The position numbers and the translations under genes are program-made. From a virus (lineage: Duplodnaviria > Heunggongvirae > Uroviricota > Caudoviricetes): DNA of 64,000 nt. Positions 49,101-55,335 of the stretch are shown piece after piece. The first letter of the stretch is position 1, and the number at the start of each line of letters is the position of its first letter. The stretch lies in IMG/VR virus record IMGVR_UViG_2939142107_000001, positions 1-64,000 of that record; one strand, 5' to 3'. The notes beneath the pieces are model-generated. The model had not been told where the DNA came from and did not search any database. It saw only the letters and a list, made by a program, of their open reading frames with translations.

Positions 49101-49886
49101 ATCAAGCAGGCAATGGACGCAGCAAACGCGCGCATCGCAGCAGAACGGGAAGCCAATCTGAATCATGCAGTCGCCGCACTGACTCAATCGTGGGTAACAG
49201 CAATCAGGGAGGCCGCCACCACAGGGAAAATCACACCTGCAATTGCGGATGTCGTAAACGCCGGCTCTAAATTTATGGATGCCTATCAAATGGATGCGGT
49301 GCAGTTGCCATCAGCCTATGGCCAACTCAGCTATCGCATGACCTACAACCTGGTATCAATGTTTTCCGACCTTGCCATCCTTGGGCTGGTGGATCTTAAC
49401 GAGGTTACGCCGGAATTGCTCAGCATGCGCAAGAATCATGTGGAGATATTGCAGAGAATTAACACGGTTCTTGCCGGGCGCACCGATGAAGAGAAACAGG
49501 CCGACGCTGATCGGATAAACCTGGCCCTTGGCAACATCACGGAGGAAGAAATTGCCGCCAGAAACGAGAAACAAGAAGAGTTATCATCAATACAGGGTGA
49601 TGCCACCAGCATAGCTCAGTCTCTTGGTCTGAATTATCGCGTATCCACCGCCGACCTGAAGATGATGTACGCACCGAAATTCGCCGCTGGCGAGGTATTT
49701 GGGCTTCAGGAAGCCTCAGGCATGAAAGGCGTTCTTTTCCGTGCGAAAGACGCAATCAAGGCGAAATTCGGCGCTCGCTGGCTGCCAGCGAAGGCGAAGA
49801 ACAGCGATTTCCCGGGTAACTGGTGGATTATCGAGACAAAACACAACGTGGCGGACGTTCTGGCCGTCATCCAACAATACGCATAA
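43119..49886 (+). CDS. darB: DarB: giant virion-packaged antirestriction protein with N6-adenine methyltransferase-like and helicase domains
   Basis: 2255-aa ORF with RBS TAAGGA; MTase-like motif DHVVGNVPFGG; helicase motif I GFGTGLGKTTTALAL and motif II DEGHNYRN. Length matches P1 DarB. Confidence 0.85.
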   Translation: MNKLSMGVFRCSSVSEILKYIRAITSHRAPIKYGVEKVEGKSYDRLRREANQKAIDLLNSLVDGATLTDEQRQILAGYTGEGGIGGSVSEYYTPKPIAEGVWEIMKLYGADVGNTLEPSAGTGVFNETKPVGTVMTATEISSVSGRINQLLHPEDSVQISPFEQLAVSTPNDSFDHVVGNVPFGGRDNTRNIDKPYAEETDMGSYFMLRMLDKIKPGGFMCVIVPPSIVSGSNMKRLRLRLSRKAEFLGAHRLPTGTFDANGTSTVVDVVLMRKHPAEMAEKIPLVDESTLESANVLWPTFISGKWFEKDGRRFVHGTQEKGFQGRIEVRADGQIDNQALKAKLIHRFESRIDWSLLDMAEPSPTADVVDEGEMRLINGVWQKYAGGRWIEADAGKELKIEVASYGADSWEALQRNLTTTEGRLGMTFTQMANVRDKYTTSISDDMVQLVDWINSQPEKYRERLYRGAMIGRMLIEYQDMKAAGHSAEQIEQQRLSLVSRLQAEIDRFGNPGRGPIAKLSGSGARAWFAFRGAIKLDGTISDELTGKLVTHDSSASYDSTSYQDTLRYLYSDLTRDPIQLDDFRLAFTGELPASDDELLNLLASTPGIAVSPYGGIVPFARATSGDINEIVAPKQEFLATLPDGPVKNNVLNQLAAIEEKRIKTPAENIRFKLNSRWFDRSVILEFLQENGYPDLRYVQSVQLEGDEMVSDTYHGGDGLFVGHRYGVVQRKDKETGEIRYEWDRKSGENATGFPAQLEKYLNGARIGGKDSATANGYREQMALLEDQFNKWIKTHDRYDELVAKYNDVFNSNIPYEHSGDPLGLKGLSGKRQPFDYQNSEVRRLSEDGRGILGFGTGLGKTTTALALEAFNYENGRSTRTAYVVPKSVLENWYYEAKEFLSEEAFSNYLFVGLDVLMDGDQIRQVPVLDENGKPVLGTDGTPVMRDALKLADEATITARMNAIPHSNYRAVVFTKEQYARIPLRDDTVDEHAQDMLYDFVAAGRVASAMDSDSHRKEAARRRVLSEYSDTGTEKAEKYPYFEDMGFDSVIADEGHNYRNSYKNGREASQLAYLPTSAVAQSARDMAIKNAYLMKKNGGRGPVLLTATPVVNTPIDAYNMLSHVLPKEYWQNMGIYGPDDFVKFFGKTRLETVQKISGEVEEKMALMGFENLDALRGIFHRWVTLKTAEDVKDTVEIPELDEHQQDAPLTEEQLAAYEELRQQAEAAAKANNGVTTSVNEDGVIEHEKARPIFSIIRDMDRVCTDMDLYYRRITYRFLPEYADAVQQLADSLPKQATSEDDDSDDSITQQSQYSLIDKGEFIQLQVPEAFEQEVNKRLARFGIDEQTVTHPVTPKYAKLIATLKEFFPEGKQIIFTDEKTQHQKLKRIICNALNLEPSKVGILNAQTVAEAGKTGKKLKAVKPPKELPDEPTDAQIAKYNEQMALYDAYIAQQNEMSLGGLEKIAADFQEGRTPIIICNKKAEVGINLHRGTTDIHHLTLPWTPASIAQRNGRGARVGSNRASVRVHYYCGKGSFDEYRLKTLKRKAGWISDILRSDKSEMENADANDMIEMQMYTAKDDGERLAMMQVQMDKAKAAKRARQKEQATIDLQNYIKAQHAAGEDVEVLTAELERSKAELEKTTAEVAKFKQAAMAKAADNADWKARWGSVHHTDRMLLAQYRASLKSAIQRKANISQAISRYEKLLNRTQKAATDIKRLRPLVEDAINKGILDVDPDLVNHANEFLVIGDRSWRVGQYYDCAGDIVRIKSLDFDSQRADVEIIFTLRGTKSGNWDVKTLDKQVDVTPDEDAVMQKISGGVSIAGINDIISCDDFYRFQQRGMIKITDSYGVQTTESGYSIDFVGTYTDPLKHAVYPDRRDGALKSSIAKWVLGMMSEGNNRQIRSAETFLVELFGSNYGDVIASYGDTLSPEAIQEKIADAIAKMPEKTSQGATRNGDSELEVTNAIFGTHEFRASDYEITTAQFGTIGIYSNKAEIKQAMDAANARIAAEREANLNHAVAALTQSWVTAIREAATTGKITPAIADVVNAGSKFMDAYQMDAVQLPSAYGQLSYRMTYNLVSMFSDLAILGLVDLNEVTPELLSMRKNHVEILQRINTVLAGRTDEEKQADADRINLALGNITEEEIAARNEKQEELSSIQGDATSIAQSLGLNYRVSTADLKMMYAPKFAAGEVFGLQEASGMKGVLFRAKDAIKAKFGARWLPAKAKNSDFPGNWWIIETKHNVADVLAVIQQYA

Positions 49887-49919
49887 CAGGAGCGCCCGGT
49901 TCGCCGGGCGTCGCATAAT

Positions 49920-50360
49920 ATGGCCACACTATCTGATACAATAAAACCGAATAAAACATATCTTGAGGCGGTACTCCGTACAGCGTTGTTAGGAAAGACA
50001 GAAGACGAATACGTTGATTTCTTCCTGTCAGGGCTACGCGGGCGATTACTGAAAAATCCCCGCCTGTACCGCAGCTATGGTCCATACTGGCCGGAAATTA
50101 AAAAATTATTACTGGAGCGCGGTTATGGTAATTTCGGTCGTCTCGTTGACCGTGACGTTCGCAAAATTTACCGTTATGACCGCCCGGCTCTAACACTCAT
50201 AGCCGCGACGCTCTACAGCCAGGAGCGTTTTGATAATGGTCAGATATACTCAGCCTGGCATTTACTGCCAGTGCCTGAAGAAGTTGACGACCAGGACTAT
50301 GAATTTGAGTCTTACGATTTGGAAGTTGAAGCCTTGGCACAGGCTGGAGAGAAAACTTGA
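49920..50360 (+). CDS. Hypothetical protein downstream of darB (P1 ulx position)
   Basis: 146-aa ORF, 33 nt after the darB stop. Confidence 0.45.
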   Translation: MATLSDTIKPNKTYLEAVLRTALLGKTEDEYVDFFLSGLRGRLLKNPRLYRSYGPYWPEIKKLLLERGYGNFGRLVDRDVRKIYRYDRPALTLIAATLYSQERFDNGQIYSAWHLLPVPEEVDDQDYEFESYDLEVEALAQAGEKT

Positions 50361-50605
50361 AAAAGCGATACTACACAGTAAAGCATGGGACGCTACGAGC
50401 ATTACAAGAGTTTGCTGATAAGCATAACGTTGAGGTGCGCAGGGAAGGGGGAAGTAAAGCTCTGCGCATGTACCGCCCGGACGGGAAATGGCGTACGGTC
50501 GTCGATTTCAAAACTAACAGCGTTCCCCAGGGCGTCCGCGACCGGGCATTCGAAGAATGGGAGCAAATCATCATAGATAATGCATTGCTCCTGAATGCTG
50601 ATTAA
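50357..50605 (+). CDS. Small protein at the P1 lxc/bof position (82 aa)
   Basis: 82-aa ORF with ATGA overlap to the upstream gene; size equals recalled P1 Bof/Lxc; sequence identity not verified. Confidence 0.4.
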   Translation: MKKRYYTVKHGTLRALQEFADKHNVEVRREGGSKALRMYRPDGKWRTVVDFKTNSVPQGVRDRAFEEWEQIIIDNALLLNAD

Positions 50606-50613
50606 GTTTGTCT

Positions 50614-50638
50614 AGCCCGGTTAATACCGGGCTGGTTT
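50614..50638. terminator. Hairpin terminator between convergent genes (AGCCCGGT-TAAT-ACCGGGCT)
   Basis: Perfect 8-bp stem, read directly. Confidence 0.5.
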
Positions 50639-50663
50639 AGACATCTTAAGTGGGTGTTAATTT

Positions 50664-51173
50664 TTAATTATGGTTAATCATATCTAACAGTATTTTTAGC
50701 TTCCTGCATGTGTTATCAATATCTTTACATAATATGACATCAAGGATGTTTGGTAGTCCTAATACCATATGAGAAATGAAACCCTCGCCAACTTGTAGAT
50801 TATGGGTAGTCTCATCTGGATTCACGTATTCAATGGTTTTAGTTTTATTTATCCCATAATCTTTATAACAGATGATTACAGGAATGTTCTTCTGTTCAGC
50901 AATCTGCAACTCTATTCCTAGCCCTGTTGATGGAAAACTACATTCTGCAATTATTACATCAGATTTCTCAACCATATCTCTGTCCCAAATGTAACAAAGT
51001 CTAGATTTGTTACTTTCAGGGCGCTTTGATAATTCTGGGTCACTATTTATCAAAGCATATTTTACGTTGTTATTTTGAGATAGACCTTTTGCAAGGCTGT
51101 GAATCCAATTACTGTACTCATGGAAAATTTCCCTTGGAACATGAGTTAAAGCGCATGCGATATATATATTCAT
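50664..51173 (-). CDS. Predicted nucleoside 2-deoxyribosyltransferase/Rcl-like (flavodoxin-like) fold protein, 169 aa; distal gene of a two-gene AT-rich operon at the res-mod position
   Basis: Start ATG overlaps the upstream stop (TAATG). N-terminal strand MNIYIACAL and C-terminal motif AECSFPSTGLGIELQIAEQKNIPVI resemble the NDT/dNMP N-glycosidase signature (buried Glu in a Gly-rich loop). Very AT-rich codon usage. Confidence 0.55.
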   Translation of the reverse strand: MNIYIACALTHVPREIFHEYSNWIHSLAKGLSQNNNVKYALINSDPELSKRPESNKSRLCYIWDRDMVEKSDVIIAECSFPSTGLGIELQIAEQKNIPVIICYKDYGINKTKTIEYVNPDETTHNLQVGEGFISHMVLGLPNILDVILCKDIDNTCRKLKILLDMINHN

Positions 51174-52213
51174 TAAGAAGCAGACCTTACGTTTGGGATA
51201 AGAAATTGGTGTCCAGTAATTTCAGATGAAATTGCATCTATAAACTGTGACGGAGATTGTTGAATAAATTCAGCAATAATCCAGTTTTCTTTTTCATTTA
51301 GTAACTGTCTTAGCTTAAGTGGGTCATACCGACATAGCTCACTTAATCGATGCATAGCTGCTAGGGTTATAACCAATGGCGATATTGAAACAGAAGTATG
51401 CTCAGATTGATTGTTTTTACGTTTGAGATACCAAAGAGTCTCTGCGCCATTGATATAGTAAAGATCTCTTCTTATTTTTTGATGAAATTCAGTTAATTGC
51501 GGCATGTTGGACGATTGATTTTCATTAAAATCAAGTAATGATTCTACTGATTTTATTTTGTACTTTTCTCTTTCAAACAATTCGAACGCTGGCGGTAGAA
51601 TGTCGAAAACTGTGTCGAACCGAAAATCCTTGGATAAAATCGCAGTGAAAAACAGGCTATTGTCTGACTCATTCAAAACGAACTCAGCATCGATCAGTGG
51701 AATAAATATATCATCAGTTACATCATAAGTAAGGCAATATGTACGATGAATATATGGCAATCCAGAAAAAAGGTTTTTTATATTGTACACCCCCTCATGA
51801 GAGGTGCCGTCAATATATTTTGAAAAAGACGGAAGTATACCCTCATTTTTTATTTTTACTTTTATATCAGATAAGTTATCAATTTGGGCTGTATTTTCAC
51901 CCCTAGCAACACCATGATGCTGTTTGAAGTTTATATTGCGAGATGAAAGTAACGCCTTTACTGCATTCATGAATGAATAATAGTGCAAAAGTGGGGCTGA
52001 TTGGTTGGGTAAACCATTGGCCGCCTGATTAAATACTTTTGCTTGCTCCCAATAAAAAAGAGCCTCATCTTTTTCGTTTCGCTTTAACCAGAGTTCGACA
52101 AAATCCCAATGACTGTATGTAAGTACATTCCTTGCGGTTAGGTCAGGGTTTAATAATGCTTTATGAGGCTTCATGACCTTGTTCCTAATTTTCAGCGGCT
52201 TAATATTCATCAT
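51173..52213 (-). CDS. Hypothetical protein, 346 aa, proximal gene of the two-gene operon; no recognisable family (weak R-x6-H motif RKNNQSEH)
   Basis: ATG 52213 with RBS GGAGGA 8 nt upstream; putative promoter TTGTGG-N17-TACAAT at about 52233-52261 on the minus strand; AT-rich. Confidence 0.55.
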   Translation of the reverse strand: MMNIKPLKIRNKVMKPHKALLNPDLTARNVLTYSHWDFVELWLKRNEKDEALFYWEQAKVFNQAANGLPNQSAPLLHYYSFMNAVKALLSSRNINFKQHHGVARGENTAQIDNLSDIKVKIKNEGILPSFSKYIDGTSHEGVYNIKNLFSGLPYIHRTYCLTYDVTDDIFIPLIDAEFVLNESDNSLFFTAILSKDFRFDTVFDILPPAFELFEREKYKIKSVESLLDFNENQSSNMPQLTEFHQKIRRDLYYINGAETLWYLKRKNNQSEHTSVSISPLVITLAAMHRLSELCRYDPLKLRQLLNEKENWIIAEFIQQSPSQFIDAISSEITGHQFLIPNVRSAS

Positions 52214-52303
52214 TGTAATAATCCTCCACCCAAAGTTACTAGATTGTAAAATATATATTTTTGTTCCACAACAAAAATCTCTATTGGCTACTGACGTAAT
52301 TAA

Positions 52304-52945
52304 TTATAAATAGTTTTCTTTGCCGGTAAGTAAGCCTTGAGGAACTCGCTTGTCGGCTAGACATTGGGTTCCGCGAATTATGTTAATCAGAGGGCTTAGT
52401 AACGATGGTTCCTGGCGGGCCTCAACTTCTCCAGCCATTGCCCTGATGTAGTCGGCGCTTGCAACGTTGTTATATTCCGTTGCGAAGCAGCATAACAACG
52501 ACAGAACGTGCTCTGTCGTTATTTCGCTCCAGTTGATGTTGAAAAATTCATCGCCTTTTTTGTCGTGTTCGGAATCGAAGATGCTTTGGTGGAGGATGTA
52601 TTTGCCGGATTCTTTGCGCGGTAACTTGATCGCTTTCTGGCGTTCCAGCTCCTTGTAAATCTGCATTGCTTCAATTAGTACCGGCCTGCCGTTCATGAAG
52701 GGATCGCGCAACCTTACACGCTGGCCAACTCGACCCGTAATAAAGCTGTTTTCCTCTTCCACCAGCACGATAAAACCCTTTTCCTCTTTTTCTTGCAATT
52801 CGCGCAGCAGCTGGAGTTCCATATCGCGGCGGCGTTCAGGGTAGCTGGTCCGCTCAGCCATTATCAGCTCATTGTTGATCCATGCGGCAGTCATTGACGC
52901 CGGTTTGCCGACGCTCATCGAAACAACGCATATTTTCTTATCCAT
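52304..52945 (-). CDS. Hypothetical protein at the P1 mat position
   Basis: Probable start ATG 52945 (RBS AAGGGG), 213 aa; lies between ref and the two-gene operon. Confidence 0.45.
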   Translation of the reverse strand: MDKKICVVSMSVGKPASMTAAWINNELIMAERTSYPERRRDMELQLLRELQEKEEKGFIVLVEEENSFITGRVGQRVRLRDPFMNGRPVLIEAMQIYKELERQKAIKLPRKESGKYILHQSIFDSEHDKKGDEFFNINWSEITTEHVLSLLCCFATEYNNVASADYIRAMAGEVEARQEPSLLSPLINIIRGTQCLADKRVPQGLLTGKENYL

Positions 52946-53134
52946 AGCGCCCCTTATAAAAAAGAAAAGCCACCAGCGGCGGCTTAGCAATACAACTGAA
53001 GGTAGCGCCCGGTACTCAGACTGTGCCGTCCATGGAATATTTGAAAAGGGATCCATCCGTACCGGGCATGTGATGATTCTGACTGAAGTCACTTGTCAGT
53101 TGTCAATTATTTCAGATTAAAAATAATATATTTA

Positions 53135-53695
53135 TTAGTGCATGATGTTTGCCATCTCATAAGCGTCAGCCAGCAACTCCATCTCTGACTTGTTCAGCAA
53201 GGTGAATTCTTTCTTGCCTCCAACCACACCATCGGCATGAACAGGGACCAGCCAGGGGTATTTTTCTCTTACTTCAGCCGGTGCTGCATGCTGGTGGTGC
53301 CATCTACAAAGTGGCAATTGCTTTTTGTGACAACCAGGCGCGGTACGACCGGAGATATGGTGCAGAGACACCTCTTCAGATATTACTCCATGCATATAGC
53401 AGGCAATGCAGGGGAGAGCACCAAGAGCATTGGCTATGCGCCGCTCCTCCGCCGTCGGTGTTCGTCCCTTCAAGCCACGAGATTTTATTTTTACCGCGCT
53501 TTTCCGCGTTTTGCTGGCTGGTGGGCGCTCTTTCTGTTTAGCGATACGGCGGTCGATAGTATTCCGCATTTTCTGATATTGAGATTCTCGCCAGGCCGGA
53601 TCAGCCAACTTCTCCCGTTGCCGAGCGATCGCTCGTTCTCTGGCTGCCTTCTGCCACTTACGGTGCTGTTCAATTTTTTGTTCGATTGTTTTCAT
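53135..53695 (-). CDS. ref: Ref (HNH-type endonuclease, recombination enhancement function)
   Basis: 186 aa from the internal ATG at 53695; His/Cys-rich HNH-like region (CIACYMHGV...HHISGRTAPGCHKKQLPLCRWHHQ); operator-like site upstream; position next to cre as in P1. Confidence 0.7.
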   Translation of the reverse strand: MKTIEQKIEQHRKWQKAARERAIARQREKLADPAWRESQYQKMRNTIDRRIAKQKERPPASKTRKSAVKIKSRGLKGRTPTAEERRIANALGALPCIACYMHGVISEEVSLHHISGRTAPGCHKKQLPLCRWHHQHAAPAEVREKYPWLVPVHADGVVGGKKEFTLLNKSEMELLADAYEMANIMH

Positions 53696-53793: not shown

Positions 53794-53810
53794 CAATCAA
53801 TTAGAGCAAT
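53794..53810 (-). promoter_or_regulatory. C1 operator-like site upstream of ref
   Basis: Core ATTGCTCTAAT on the minus strand; partial match to the 17-mer. Confidence 0.45.
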
Positions 53811-54303: not shown

Positions 54304-55335
54304 CTAATCGCCATCTTCCAGCAGGCGCACCATTGCCCCTGTTTCACTATCCAGGTTACGGATATAGTTCATGACAATATTTACGTTGGTCCAGCCACCA
54401 GCTTGCATGATCTCCGGTATTGAAACTCCGGCGCGGGCCATATCTCGCGCGGCTCCGACACGGGCACTGTGTCCAGACCAGGCCAGGTACCTCTGACCAG
54501 AGTCATCCTTAGCCCCGTAAATCAATCGGTGAGTTGCTTCAAAAATCCCTTCCAGGGCGCGAGTTGATAGCTGGCTGGTGGATGATGGCGAGGCAACACC
54601 ATTTTTTCTGACCCGGCAAAACAAGTAGTTATTCGGATCATCAGCCACACCAGAGACGGAAATCCATCGCTCGACCAGTTTAGTTACCCCCAGGCTAAGT
54701 GCCTTCTCTACACCTGCGGTGCTAACCAGCGTTTTCGTTCTGCCAATATGGATTAACATTCTCCCACCGTCAGTACGTGAGATATCTTTAACCCTGATCC
54801 TGGCAATTTCGGCTATACGTAACAGGGTGTTATAAGCAATCCCCAGAAATGCCAGATTACGTATATCCTGGCAGCGATCGCTATTTTCTATGAGTGAACG
54901 AACCTGGTCGAAATCAGTGCGTTCGAACGCCAGTGCCTGTTTTGCACGTTCACCGGCATCAACGTTTTCTTTTCGGATCCGCCGCATGACCAGTGAAACA
55001 GCATTGCTGTCACTTGGTCGTGGCAGCCCGGACCGACGATGAAGCATGTTTAGCTGGCCCAAATGTTGCTGGATAGTTTTTACTGCCAGACCGCGCGCCT
55101 GAAGATATAGAAGATAATCGCGAACATCTTCAGGTTCTGCGGGAAACCATTTCCGGTTATTCAACTTGCACCATGCCGCCCACGACCGGCAAACGGACAG
55201 AAGCATTTTCCAGGTATGCTCAGAAAACGCCTGGCGATCCCTGAACATGTCCATCAGGTTCTTGCGAACCTCATCACTCGTTGCATCGACCGGTAATGCA
55301 GGCAAATTTTGGTGTACGGTCAGTAAATTGGACAT
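54304..55335 (-). CDS. cre: Cre site-specific tyrosine recombinase
   Basis: 343-aa protein MSNLLTVHQNLPALPVDATSDEVRKNLMDMFRDRQAFSEHTWKMLLSVCRSWAAWCKLNNRKWFPAEPEDVRDYLLYLQARGLAVKTIQQHLGQLNMLHRRSGLPRPSDSNAVSLVMRRIRKEN... recognised as P1 Cre; loxP lies about 410 bp upstream. Confidence 0.97.
   Translation of the reverse strand: MSNLLTVHQNLPALPVDATSDEVRKNLMDMFRDRQAFSEHTWKMLLSVCRSWAAWCKLNNRKWFPAEPEDVRDYLLYLQARGLAVKTIQQHLGQLNMLHRRSGLPRPSDSNAVSLVMRRIRKENVDAGERAKQALAFERTDFDQVRSLIENSDRCQDIRNLAFLGIAYNTLLRIAEIARIRVKDISRTDGGRMLIHIGRTKTLVSTAGVEKALSLGVTKLVERWISVSGVADDPNNYLFCRVRKNGVASPSSTSQLSTRALEGIFEATHRLIYGAKDDSGQRYLAWSGHSARVGAARDMARAGVSIPEIMQAGGWTNVNIVMNYIRNLDSETGAMVRLLEDGD

Follow-up and report, generated by a model that had tools for sequence, protein, structure and literature searches.

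A compact operon of two overlapping genes, encoding a YaaC family protein and a predicted nucleotide N-glycosidase of the nucleoside 2-deoxyribosyltransferase (NDT)/DNPH1 fold, occupies the variable slot between the conserved genes lxc and mat in a P1-like element of the Caudoviricetes (IMG/VR record IMGVR_UViG_2939142107_000001, positions 1 to 64,000; this stretch of 64,000 nucleotides is referred to as the window). The pair unites known fold types in an undescribed combination. The explanation that we favor, with about even confidence, is that this cargo is a self-contained two-gene anti-phage defense system in which the predicted N-glycosidase would be the effector and YaaC the sensor or regulator. 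The basis of this explanation is gene structure, folds, catalytic residues, obligate pairing, exchange of the partner, the hotspot position and the genomic neighborhoods; from these we infer that the proteins form a complex, which of them senses and which acts, what the substrate and the trigger may be, and the defense phenotype itself. An earlier note on this DNA, made from the sequence alone, had proposed an uncharacterized defense or abortive infection (Abi) module, and as a candidate the proposal holds, given the hotspot, the defense neighbors of homologous pairs elsewhere, the lack of a PADLOC model and the lack of literature on the pair.

The Cargo Island

The island is 1.7 kb in length, has a GC content of about 35% and fills the interval from the lxc stop codon to the mat stop codon (Table 1). 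GC content is 0.34–0.38 across 50600–52400 versus approximately 0.48–0.54 on either side, as AT-rich relative to the backbone as the earlier note had described, and this composition (35% GC against a backbone of about 50%) marks the cargo as foreign in origin. When aligned with P1-like relatives, homology of the backbone extends as far as the lxc stop codon (50605) and restarts at approximately 52293–52304 at the mat stop, which essentially reproduces the boundaries of 50611–52303 originally drawn. The possibility that the cargo is transposon-borne was rejected, as neither direct nor inverted flanking repeats were found.

The E. coli P1-like phage-plasmid pCARB35_01 (NZ_CP031654.1) is 100% identical to the window from 50600 to 52310, at equal coordinates, and its PGAP annotation contains the same two coding sequences. 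The open reading frames (ORFs) of 346 and 169 aa thus agree between the two sources, and both lie on the minus strand, which is that of cre, as first reported. Their TAATG stop/start overlap, one base of which is common to both genes, points to translational coupling of the YaaC and NDT genes.

The Small Protein Is a Predicted N-Glycosidase

Matches to the NDT family PF05014 are precomputed for many homologs of the 169-aa product of the second gene, and a profile of its family finds Rcl/DNPH1 in the PDB at E = 4.6e-5 with the Asp and the Glu aligned. The AlphaFold2 model of the protein (predicted local distance difference test, pLDDT, 96.1) has the flavodoxin-like NDT fold, and Foldseek relates it to DNPH1, the CMP N-glycosidase BcmB and bacterial NDTs (E ~1e-5, probability 1.00, target-normalized TM score 0.62–0.77). 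E88, in the motif GLGIE, aligns with GVGYE of DNPH1, and the counterpart of D64 is the Asp of EQD. Neither residue varies among 43 sequences, and Y4 is likewise invariant in the family. E88 is the predicted catalytic nucleophile, which gives a probable function to what the earlier note had singled out as a conserved Glu of the small protein, and D64 is predicted to be the conserved catalytic Asp. Y4, judged by position only, would be the equivalent of Tyr24 of DNPH1. PDB entries name DNPH1 a 5-hydroxymethyl-dUMP N-hydrolase.

Homologs of the small protein remain 50–70% identical across very distant bacteria. They have a family-specific insertion of approximately 40 residues (about 105–145) with an invariant Y-x-NPD...LQ-x-G-x-G block. 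A sister family of 250–565 aa (P0321–P0392) has the whole NDT-like domain embedded and followed by long, charged helical C-termini; it keeps the Asp and the Glu, and the N-terminal Tyr is replaced by Phe. These tails were considered as a possible "Rosetta stone" for the pair, an idea that was dropped as they have no similarity to YaaC and no fused YaaC–NDT protein was found.

The Large Protein Belongs to the YaaC Family and Has a HEPN-Like Fold

The 346-aa product of the first gene is a full-length match to PF14175 (YaaC-like), a family without assigned function, with residues 34–332 covering profile positions 18–307 of 307 (E = 6e-46, 157.6 bits versus a gathering cut-off of 27). The same family is matched by 44 of 44 aligned homologs, and the PGAP product name is "YaaC family protein." Contrary to the earlier note, which recognized no motifs of a named system in either protein, both can be assigned to a family: the large one plainly to Pfam YaaC, with a HEPN-like fold, and the small one to enzymes of the NDT/DNPH1 fold.

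An AlphaFold model made from the 44-sequence alignment (pLDDT 92) contains a four-helix, up-down HEPN-type bundle that is split (approximately residues 35–91 and 279–333) by an alpha/beta insertion of approximately 180 aa. No solved or viral structure matched this insertion, a Foldseek search of BFVD with the YaaC model returning nothing below E = 0.5. No PDB sequence was found for YaaC either, whether the query was the single sequence or a profile. The canonical Rx4-6H motif of HEPN nucleases is not conserved in the helices of the bundle, its only frequent occurrence being at residue 12 (23 of 44 sequences), while a reversed motif, H288-x6-R295, is found in all 44. The only recurring secondary sequence signal is a very weak one to Pfam HEPN, seen in four of the 44 members with E values no better than 0.085. 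YaaC has many invariant polar positions: H100, H156/R157, H288, R295, E315, D326, E331, and R343. YaaC is not listed in the 2013 survey of HEPN proteins, which mentions NDT domains solely in the role of toxins joined to the N-terminal domains of AbiJ (PMC3710099).

Two IMG/VR contigs encode YaaC family proteins that are approximately 36% identical to that of the window and have no NDT partner (L074, 6004–8197, and L075, 5956–6987); in the first of these, the gene after YaaC encodes a 292-aa protein that matches nothing in Pfam or PADLOC. YaaC may thus pair with other effectors.

The Two Genes Form a Conserved Pair in Which the Partner of the NDT-Like Enzyme Can Be Exchanged

Among 52 loci of species-representative genomes, YaaC lies immediately upstream of the NDT-like gene, co-directional and abutting or overlapping, in 47; four of the other five give no answer, being cut off by contig ends or masked with Ns, and one (L019) has a different partner. 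As judged from record titles, the loci span at least 10 phyla (Bacteroidota; Alpha-, Beta-, and Gammaproteobacteria; Cyanobacteria; Planctomycetota; Acidobacteriota; Campylobacterota; Myxococcota; Spirochaetota; Armatimonadota; Nitrospirota), and the same arrangement is found in E. coli chromosomes, Bradyrhizobium, and Chryseobacterium. Three P1-like IMG/VR contigs hold a 99%-identical YaaC gene, each with the NDT gene next to it. The small protein was absent from deposited phage genomes, also at the protein level by tblastn.

In three independent contigs, the NDT-like gene is coupled through a 4-nt overlap to a gene for a dCTP deaminase (DCD)-like protein of 322–331 aa, which has an N-terminal DCD-like domain (PF22769, E = 1.6e-26). 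The NDT-like proteins of this variant are approximately 60% identical to that of the window and 71–72% identical among themselves. That the DCD-like partner might be a diverged YaaC was rejected (hhalign probability 0.1%). In L019, the DCD-like protein has a C-terminal region of approximately 165 aa that ends in hydrophobic, possibly transmembrane, segments. Partner exchange is common in defense systems; because the DCD-like swap recurs, the NDT-like enzyme appears to be the constant catalytic module, with exchangeable partners.

Diverged or degraded copies also occur. PLSDB records CP057283.1, NZ_CP122640.1, and CP057689.1 (H112–H114) retain only the last ~60 codons of the NDT gene, at 87% identity; one of these remnants lies beneath an IS1A transposase annotation. 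They have the appearance of a diverged cargo copy that was truncated by IS1.

The lxc–mat Interval Is a Defense Hotspot

The flanks provided by lxc and mat are conserved at 94–98% identity among P1-like phages, and the cargo between them is interchangeable (compared intervals L009, L010, L064–L067, and L079). P1 and P7 carry a type III restriction-modification (R-M) system, res-mod; SJ46 carries CapRel(SJ46), a 373-aa protein identical to PDB 7ZTB and an experimentally characterized fused toxin–antitoxin defense of that phage (PMC9712102; bioRxiv 10.64898/2026.04.06.716658). JL22 has a PIN_12 protein with a weak match to PDC-S34; MH422554 has a DUF2971 protein that matches the candidate PDC-S31; Ro157c2YLVW has an AraC-HTH and EAL pair; and the slot of RCS47 is empty, at only 39 bp. 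With its conserved flanks and interchangeable cargo, including validated defense systems, the interval is a defense hotspot, in agreement with the earlier view that foreign cargo has replaced res-mod at a conserved position. That view was correct in placing res and mod here in canonical P1 but not in naming IS1 as the accompanying insertion element: the mod gene of the reference record contains an IS5 insertion, and res and mod are on the strand opposite to mat. OP279344.1 (L011), titled "P1 isolate del res del mod," has an AraC-HTH and EAL pair in the slot, like Ro157c2YLVW, and is not empty.

The abundance of these cargos was estimated by megablast against 5,426 complete E. coli genomes, with matches counted irrespective of position in the record. 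The P1-like marker mat was found in 694 genomes, and YaaC together with NDT in 109, which is approximately 2% of all complete E. coli genomes and approximately 16% of those positive for mat. The AraC and EAL pair, which is not an obvious defense system, was the most frequent cargo counted (140 genomes), and P1 res (88 genomes; 57 places on plasmids), DUF2971 (62), PIN (30), and CapRel(SJ46) (14) were each rarer than YaaC–NDT. On plasmids, YaaC–NDT is more common than res-mod, and it is about eight times as frequent as CapRel(SJ46).

Genomic Neighborhoods and Database Status

Elsewhere, the YaaC–NDT pair is often found beside defense genes. In E. coli chromosomes its neighbors are BrxR, an integrase and Dpd genes; in Bradyrhizobium it has rpmB on one side and Gabija-like genes on the other; and in Chryseobacterium it adjoins Pycsar (PycTM). 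At 47 loci, the three genes on either side of the pair gave a pooled set of 239 ORFs, and strong PADLOC matches among them include GajA/GajB, PycC, type I R-M, dGTPase (two loci), Hachiman HamA/HamB, Wadjet JetC/JetD, mad2/mad3, E1-E2, type IV DinG, and several PDC candidates; the DCD variant in L019 adjoins SoFic and an MTase/ResIII pair. These neighborhoods support a defense role in a suggestive rather than quantitative manner. DUF2971/PDC-S31 genes, an alternative cargo of the P1 slot, stand directly beside YaaC–NDT pairs at L073 (7680–8348) and at three loci within L037–L058, and the two may travel or work together.

Neither protein matched any family of PADLOC-DB v2.0.0 at E up to 1, in answer to the check that the earlier note had proposed; YaaC relatives were also negative in PADLOC, and the DCD-like partners had no match at E up to 0.001. 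Nothing useful came from scanning the two proteins against NCBIfam and PHROGs, and the only public names are "YaaC family protein," "hypothetical protein," and "nucleoside 2-deoxyribosyltransferase." No description of a YaaC–NDT pair was found in open-access text or in bioRxiv; the PADLOC release dates from 2023, which leaves room for a recent description that uses a different name. The string "YAAC" in integron papers was set aside, being a DNA consensus and not the YaaC protein.

Putative Regulatory Signals

The operon had been credited with a σ70-like promoter of its own. The sequence TTGTGG-N17-TACAAT is indeed present, but it falls below the threshold of the consensus scan, and promoter-like sites in the region are not in excess over shuffles (four found versus 7.7 expected). 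The ribosome-binding site assigned to the first gene is present as GGAGG, 9 nt before the YaaC ATG. The hairpin that separates lxc from the convergent NDT gene, earlier called a terminator, is very stable (ΔG −21.2 kcal/mol, z = −5.86; 0 of 200 shuffles equally stable), but it has no U-tract and was not called by the terminator scan. This hairpin is cargo-specific, as each relative (for example RCS47 and SJ46) has a different one just after lxc. An inverted repeat overlaps the putative promoter at its −35 element and spacer; it may serve as an autoregulatory operator or mark the end or terminator of the mat transcript.

No 17-mer resembling the C1 operator (at most three mismatches) lies within 50600–52310, as the earlier note had said of the promoter region, the nearest being at 53794–53810. 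The window has 10 such sites, versus 0.29 expected by chance, as would fit an element whose P1-type immunity circuit is intact. In the P1 annotation, mat carries a C1 operator (Omat) and a late promoter (LPmat); the operon follows mat in the same direction of transcription, so that expression by read-through is possible. That the operon is expressed in the lysogen, as the earlier note had supposed, we infer only. The longest ORF for mat is 52304–53092 (GTG start, 262 aa), whereas PGAP and P1-like annotations use 52304–52945 (213 aa).

Table 1. Features of the lxc–mat interval and related loci (window coordinates unless a contig is named).
Feature	Coordinates	Strand	Basis
lxc, left conserved flank of the hotspot	50357..50605	+	ORF call; PGAP; comparison with relatives
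GC-rich hairpin between convergent lxc and NDT genes	50602..50649	.	Folding energy against shuffles
NDT/DNPH1-fold gene 2, predicted nucleotide N-glycosidase, 169 aa	50664..51173	-	ORF call; fold; invariant D64, E88 (GLGIE), Y4
TAATG stop/start overlap	51171..51175	-	Read from sequence
YaaC family gene 1, 346 aa	51173..52213	-	ORF call; PF14175; PGAP
GGAGG ribosome-binding site, 9 nt 5′ of the YaaC ATG	52223..52227	-	Read from sequence
Putative σ70 promoter, TTGTGG-N17-TACAAT	52243..52271	-	−35 3/6, −10 5/6; read from sequence; missed by consensus scan
16-nt inverted repeat with 88% complementarity and a 4-nt loop, close behind the mat stop	52250..52285	.	Repeat search
mat, right conserved flank, upstream of the cargo on the same strand	52304..52945	-	PGAP; comparison with relatives
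cre	54304..55335	-	
C1-operator-like 17-mers	12807, 14466, 39323, 43173, 53794, 55822, 55905, 57568, 59328, 61842		At most three mismatches
DCD-like + NDT variant, L019/L076	9009-10540		
DCD-like + NDT variant, L077	237-1717		
DCD-like + NDT variant, L078	100-1607		

Discussion

In the explanation that we favor, the YaaC and NDT proteins would be made in coupled amounts and would act together, probably as a complex. The 169-aa N-glycosidase would be the effector, cutting the base from a nucleotide; its likeliest substrate is a (deoxy)nucleoside monophosphate, possibly a pyrimidine or a phage-specific 5-hydroxymethyl-pyrimidine deoxynucleoside monophosphate, with NAD+ as the alternative, as for the NDT effector of retron-Ec86. 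YaaC, with its HEPN-type bundle and family-specific inserted domain, would be the sensor or regulator that holds the enzyme off, or directs it, until a cue from an infecting phage is received. Activation would then deplete the nucleotide or NAD+ pool and block phage replication, and the lysogen, hence the phage-plasmid, would be protected. The exchange of YaaC for a DCD-like partner points toward deoxypyrimidine nucleotides and nucleotide-depletion chemistry, and the order of the genes, regulator first and enzyme second, resembles that of type II toxin–antitoxin and Abi operons, which is a weak argument.

Among known systems, the pair resembles defenses based on NDT effectors or nucleotide depletion most closely. 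The NDT-like effector of retron Ec86 is caged by its partners and, when released, kills by depletion of NAD+ (reviewed in PMC13276650). Retron-Ec86 (Eco1) and the cargo thus have in common an NDT-fold N-glycosidase as (predicted) defense effector held inactive by a partner, but the partner in the cargo is YaaC/HEPN-like, and there is neither a reverse transcriptase nor msd/msr RNA. A retron was rejected on the same grounds: only two ORFs lie between lxc and mat, neither of them a reverse transcriptase, and no match was found in Rfam at E up to 1 in 49800–53200 or in PADLOC at E up to 1. Of the solved structures, DNPH1/Rcl and the MilB/BcmB nucleotide N-glycosidases come closest, and no other PDB sequences match significantly; the Asp and Glu are aligned. 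The window protein differs in being only approximately 15–18% identical to them, in its own ~40-residue insertion and LTHVPR loop, and in having an obligate partner and a mobile defense context. Defenses of the dCTP deaminase and dGTPase types deplete nucleotides (Tal et al., 2022, as summarized in PMC13276650), and the cargo is comparable to them in the predicted destruction of precursors that would starve phage replication, as well as in the DCD-fold partner of the minor clade; the window itself has no deaminase, and the predicted reaction is N-glycosidic cleavage rather than deamination or triphosphohydrolysis.

The HEPN-type bundle in a two-gene mobile conflict module recalls the Abi and toxin–antitoxin systems built on HEPN domains (HEPN-MNT, AbiD/F, AbiA, and RnlA; PMC3710099), from which YaaC differs in its lack of Rx4-6H and in its ~180-aa insert without structural match. 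Pfam scans of the cargo detected no NTase domain of the kind that defines HEPN-MNT, the sole partner being the NDT-fold protein. CapRel(SJ46) and EcoP1I res-mod occupy the same slot in sister P1-like phages and presumably have the same role, protection of the lysogen, but their proteins and mechanisms are unrelated to those of the cargo, CapRel being a fused toxSAS toxin–antitoxin and EcoP1I a type III R-M system. The pair therefore does not have the defining features of retrons, of HEPN-MNT, of catalytic HEPN RNases or of any PADLOC v2 family.

Several observations weigh against a two-gene defense system with an NDT-like effector or restrict how far it can be specified. The match of the small protein itself to PF05014 (E = 1.8e-4, 22.1 bits) lies under the gathering score of 28.8. 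Its N-terminal loop after strand 1 reads LTHVPR where DNPH1 has the phosphate-binding loop SIRGG, so the substrate cannot be assigned. The many invariant polar residues of YaaC suggest that it may itself be an enzyme and not a mere regulator. YaaC is frameshifted beside an intact NDT gene in several loci from metagenome-assembled genomes (L014, L024, and L056), in which assembly errors are possible; such loci argue against a constitutively lethal NDT that needs YaaC as an antitoxin. Housekeeping genes are common among the neighbors of the pair, the promoter and the terminator are plausible and have no statistical support, and the blank result in PADLOC, which is neutral with respect to novelty, means that there is no validated relative.

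If the roles were reversed, YaaC would be the effector, as a HEPN-type RNase or another toxin that targets nucleic acids, and the NDT-like enzyme would be its regulator or antitoxin, for example through a nucleotide signal that it makes, destroys or binds; the module would still serve defense or Abi. We consider this arrangement unlikely, because no Rx4-6H motif is conserved in the HEPN helices and the Pfam HEPN signal is confined to the few poor matches described above, because the NDT-like protein keeps its full catalytic set and can pair with a DCD-like protein and so looks like a constant, active module rather than an accessory antitoxin, and because antitoxins usually come first in the operon, the place taken here by YaaC. 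It is less probable still that the pair is a toxin–antitoxin-like addiction or stabilization module, of the phage-plasmid or of genomic islands, with no specific anti-phage role. A compact overlapping two-gene operon on a low-copy plasmid prophage would suit such a function, as would its patchy distribution and horizontal spread and an inverted repeat over the putative promoter that could be an autoregulatory operator, and toxin–antitoxin modules also populate defense islands. P1, however, has its own addiction system; the slot is otherwise filled with bona fide defense systems; and with intact NDT genes beside disrupted YaaC genes on the one hand and IS1-truncated NDT remnants on the other, neither partner looks strictly addictive. 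Toxin–antitoxin function and defense are, moreover, not mutually exclusive.

The pair could instead serve the phage-plasmid itself, either in counter-defense, for example by degrading a host immune signaling nucleotide, or in sanitizing or salvaging the nucleotide pool during P1 replication. It does adjoin the anti-restriction genes ulx and darB, its position downstream of mat on the same strand would allow late read-through expression from a promoter like that of P1 mat, and enzymes of the DNPH1 family are pool sanitizers in eukaryotes. Homologous pairs are nevertheless found in chromosomal defense islands that are not obviously prophages (Bradyrhizobium, Chryseobacterium), the small protein is missing from deposited phage genomes even by tblastn, and the AT-rich foreign composition and turnover of the hotspot fit accessory defense cargo, so that we regard a phage-serving role as the most doubtful of the explanations considered. 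A more specific version of the defense hypothesis, for which we see only a slim chance, is that the small protein is a bacterial counterpart of DNPH1 that hydrolyzes phage-modified precursors (5-hydroxymethyl-dCMP or -dUMP of T-even-like and other hypermodifying phages), with YaaC sensing or delivering the substrate. If so, this would be a non-suicidal, "pool-sanitizing" immunity that starves only phages with modified DNA, which evade the type III restriction that the cargo replaces, and it would link a human nucleotide-sanitizing enzyme to prokaryotic antiviral defense.

New candidate defense systems are now frequent. Should the favored explanation, a two-gene system with an N-glycosidase effector and a YaaC sensor or regulator, be correct, the pair would be a new, compact defense system and would provide the first functional context for YaaC, and nucleotide-depletion immunity would be extended to N-glycosidic cleavage outside retrons. 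The DCD-like protein that replaces YaaC in the variant module offers a handle on both substrate and mechanism, and the lxc–mat interval of P1-like phage-plasmids is a defense hotspot open to further mining.

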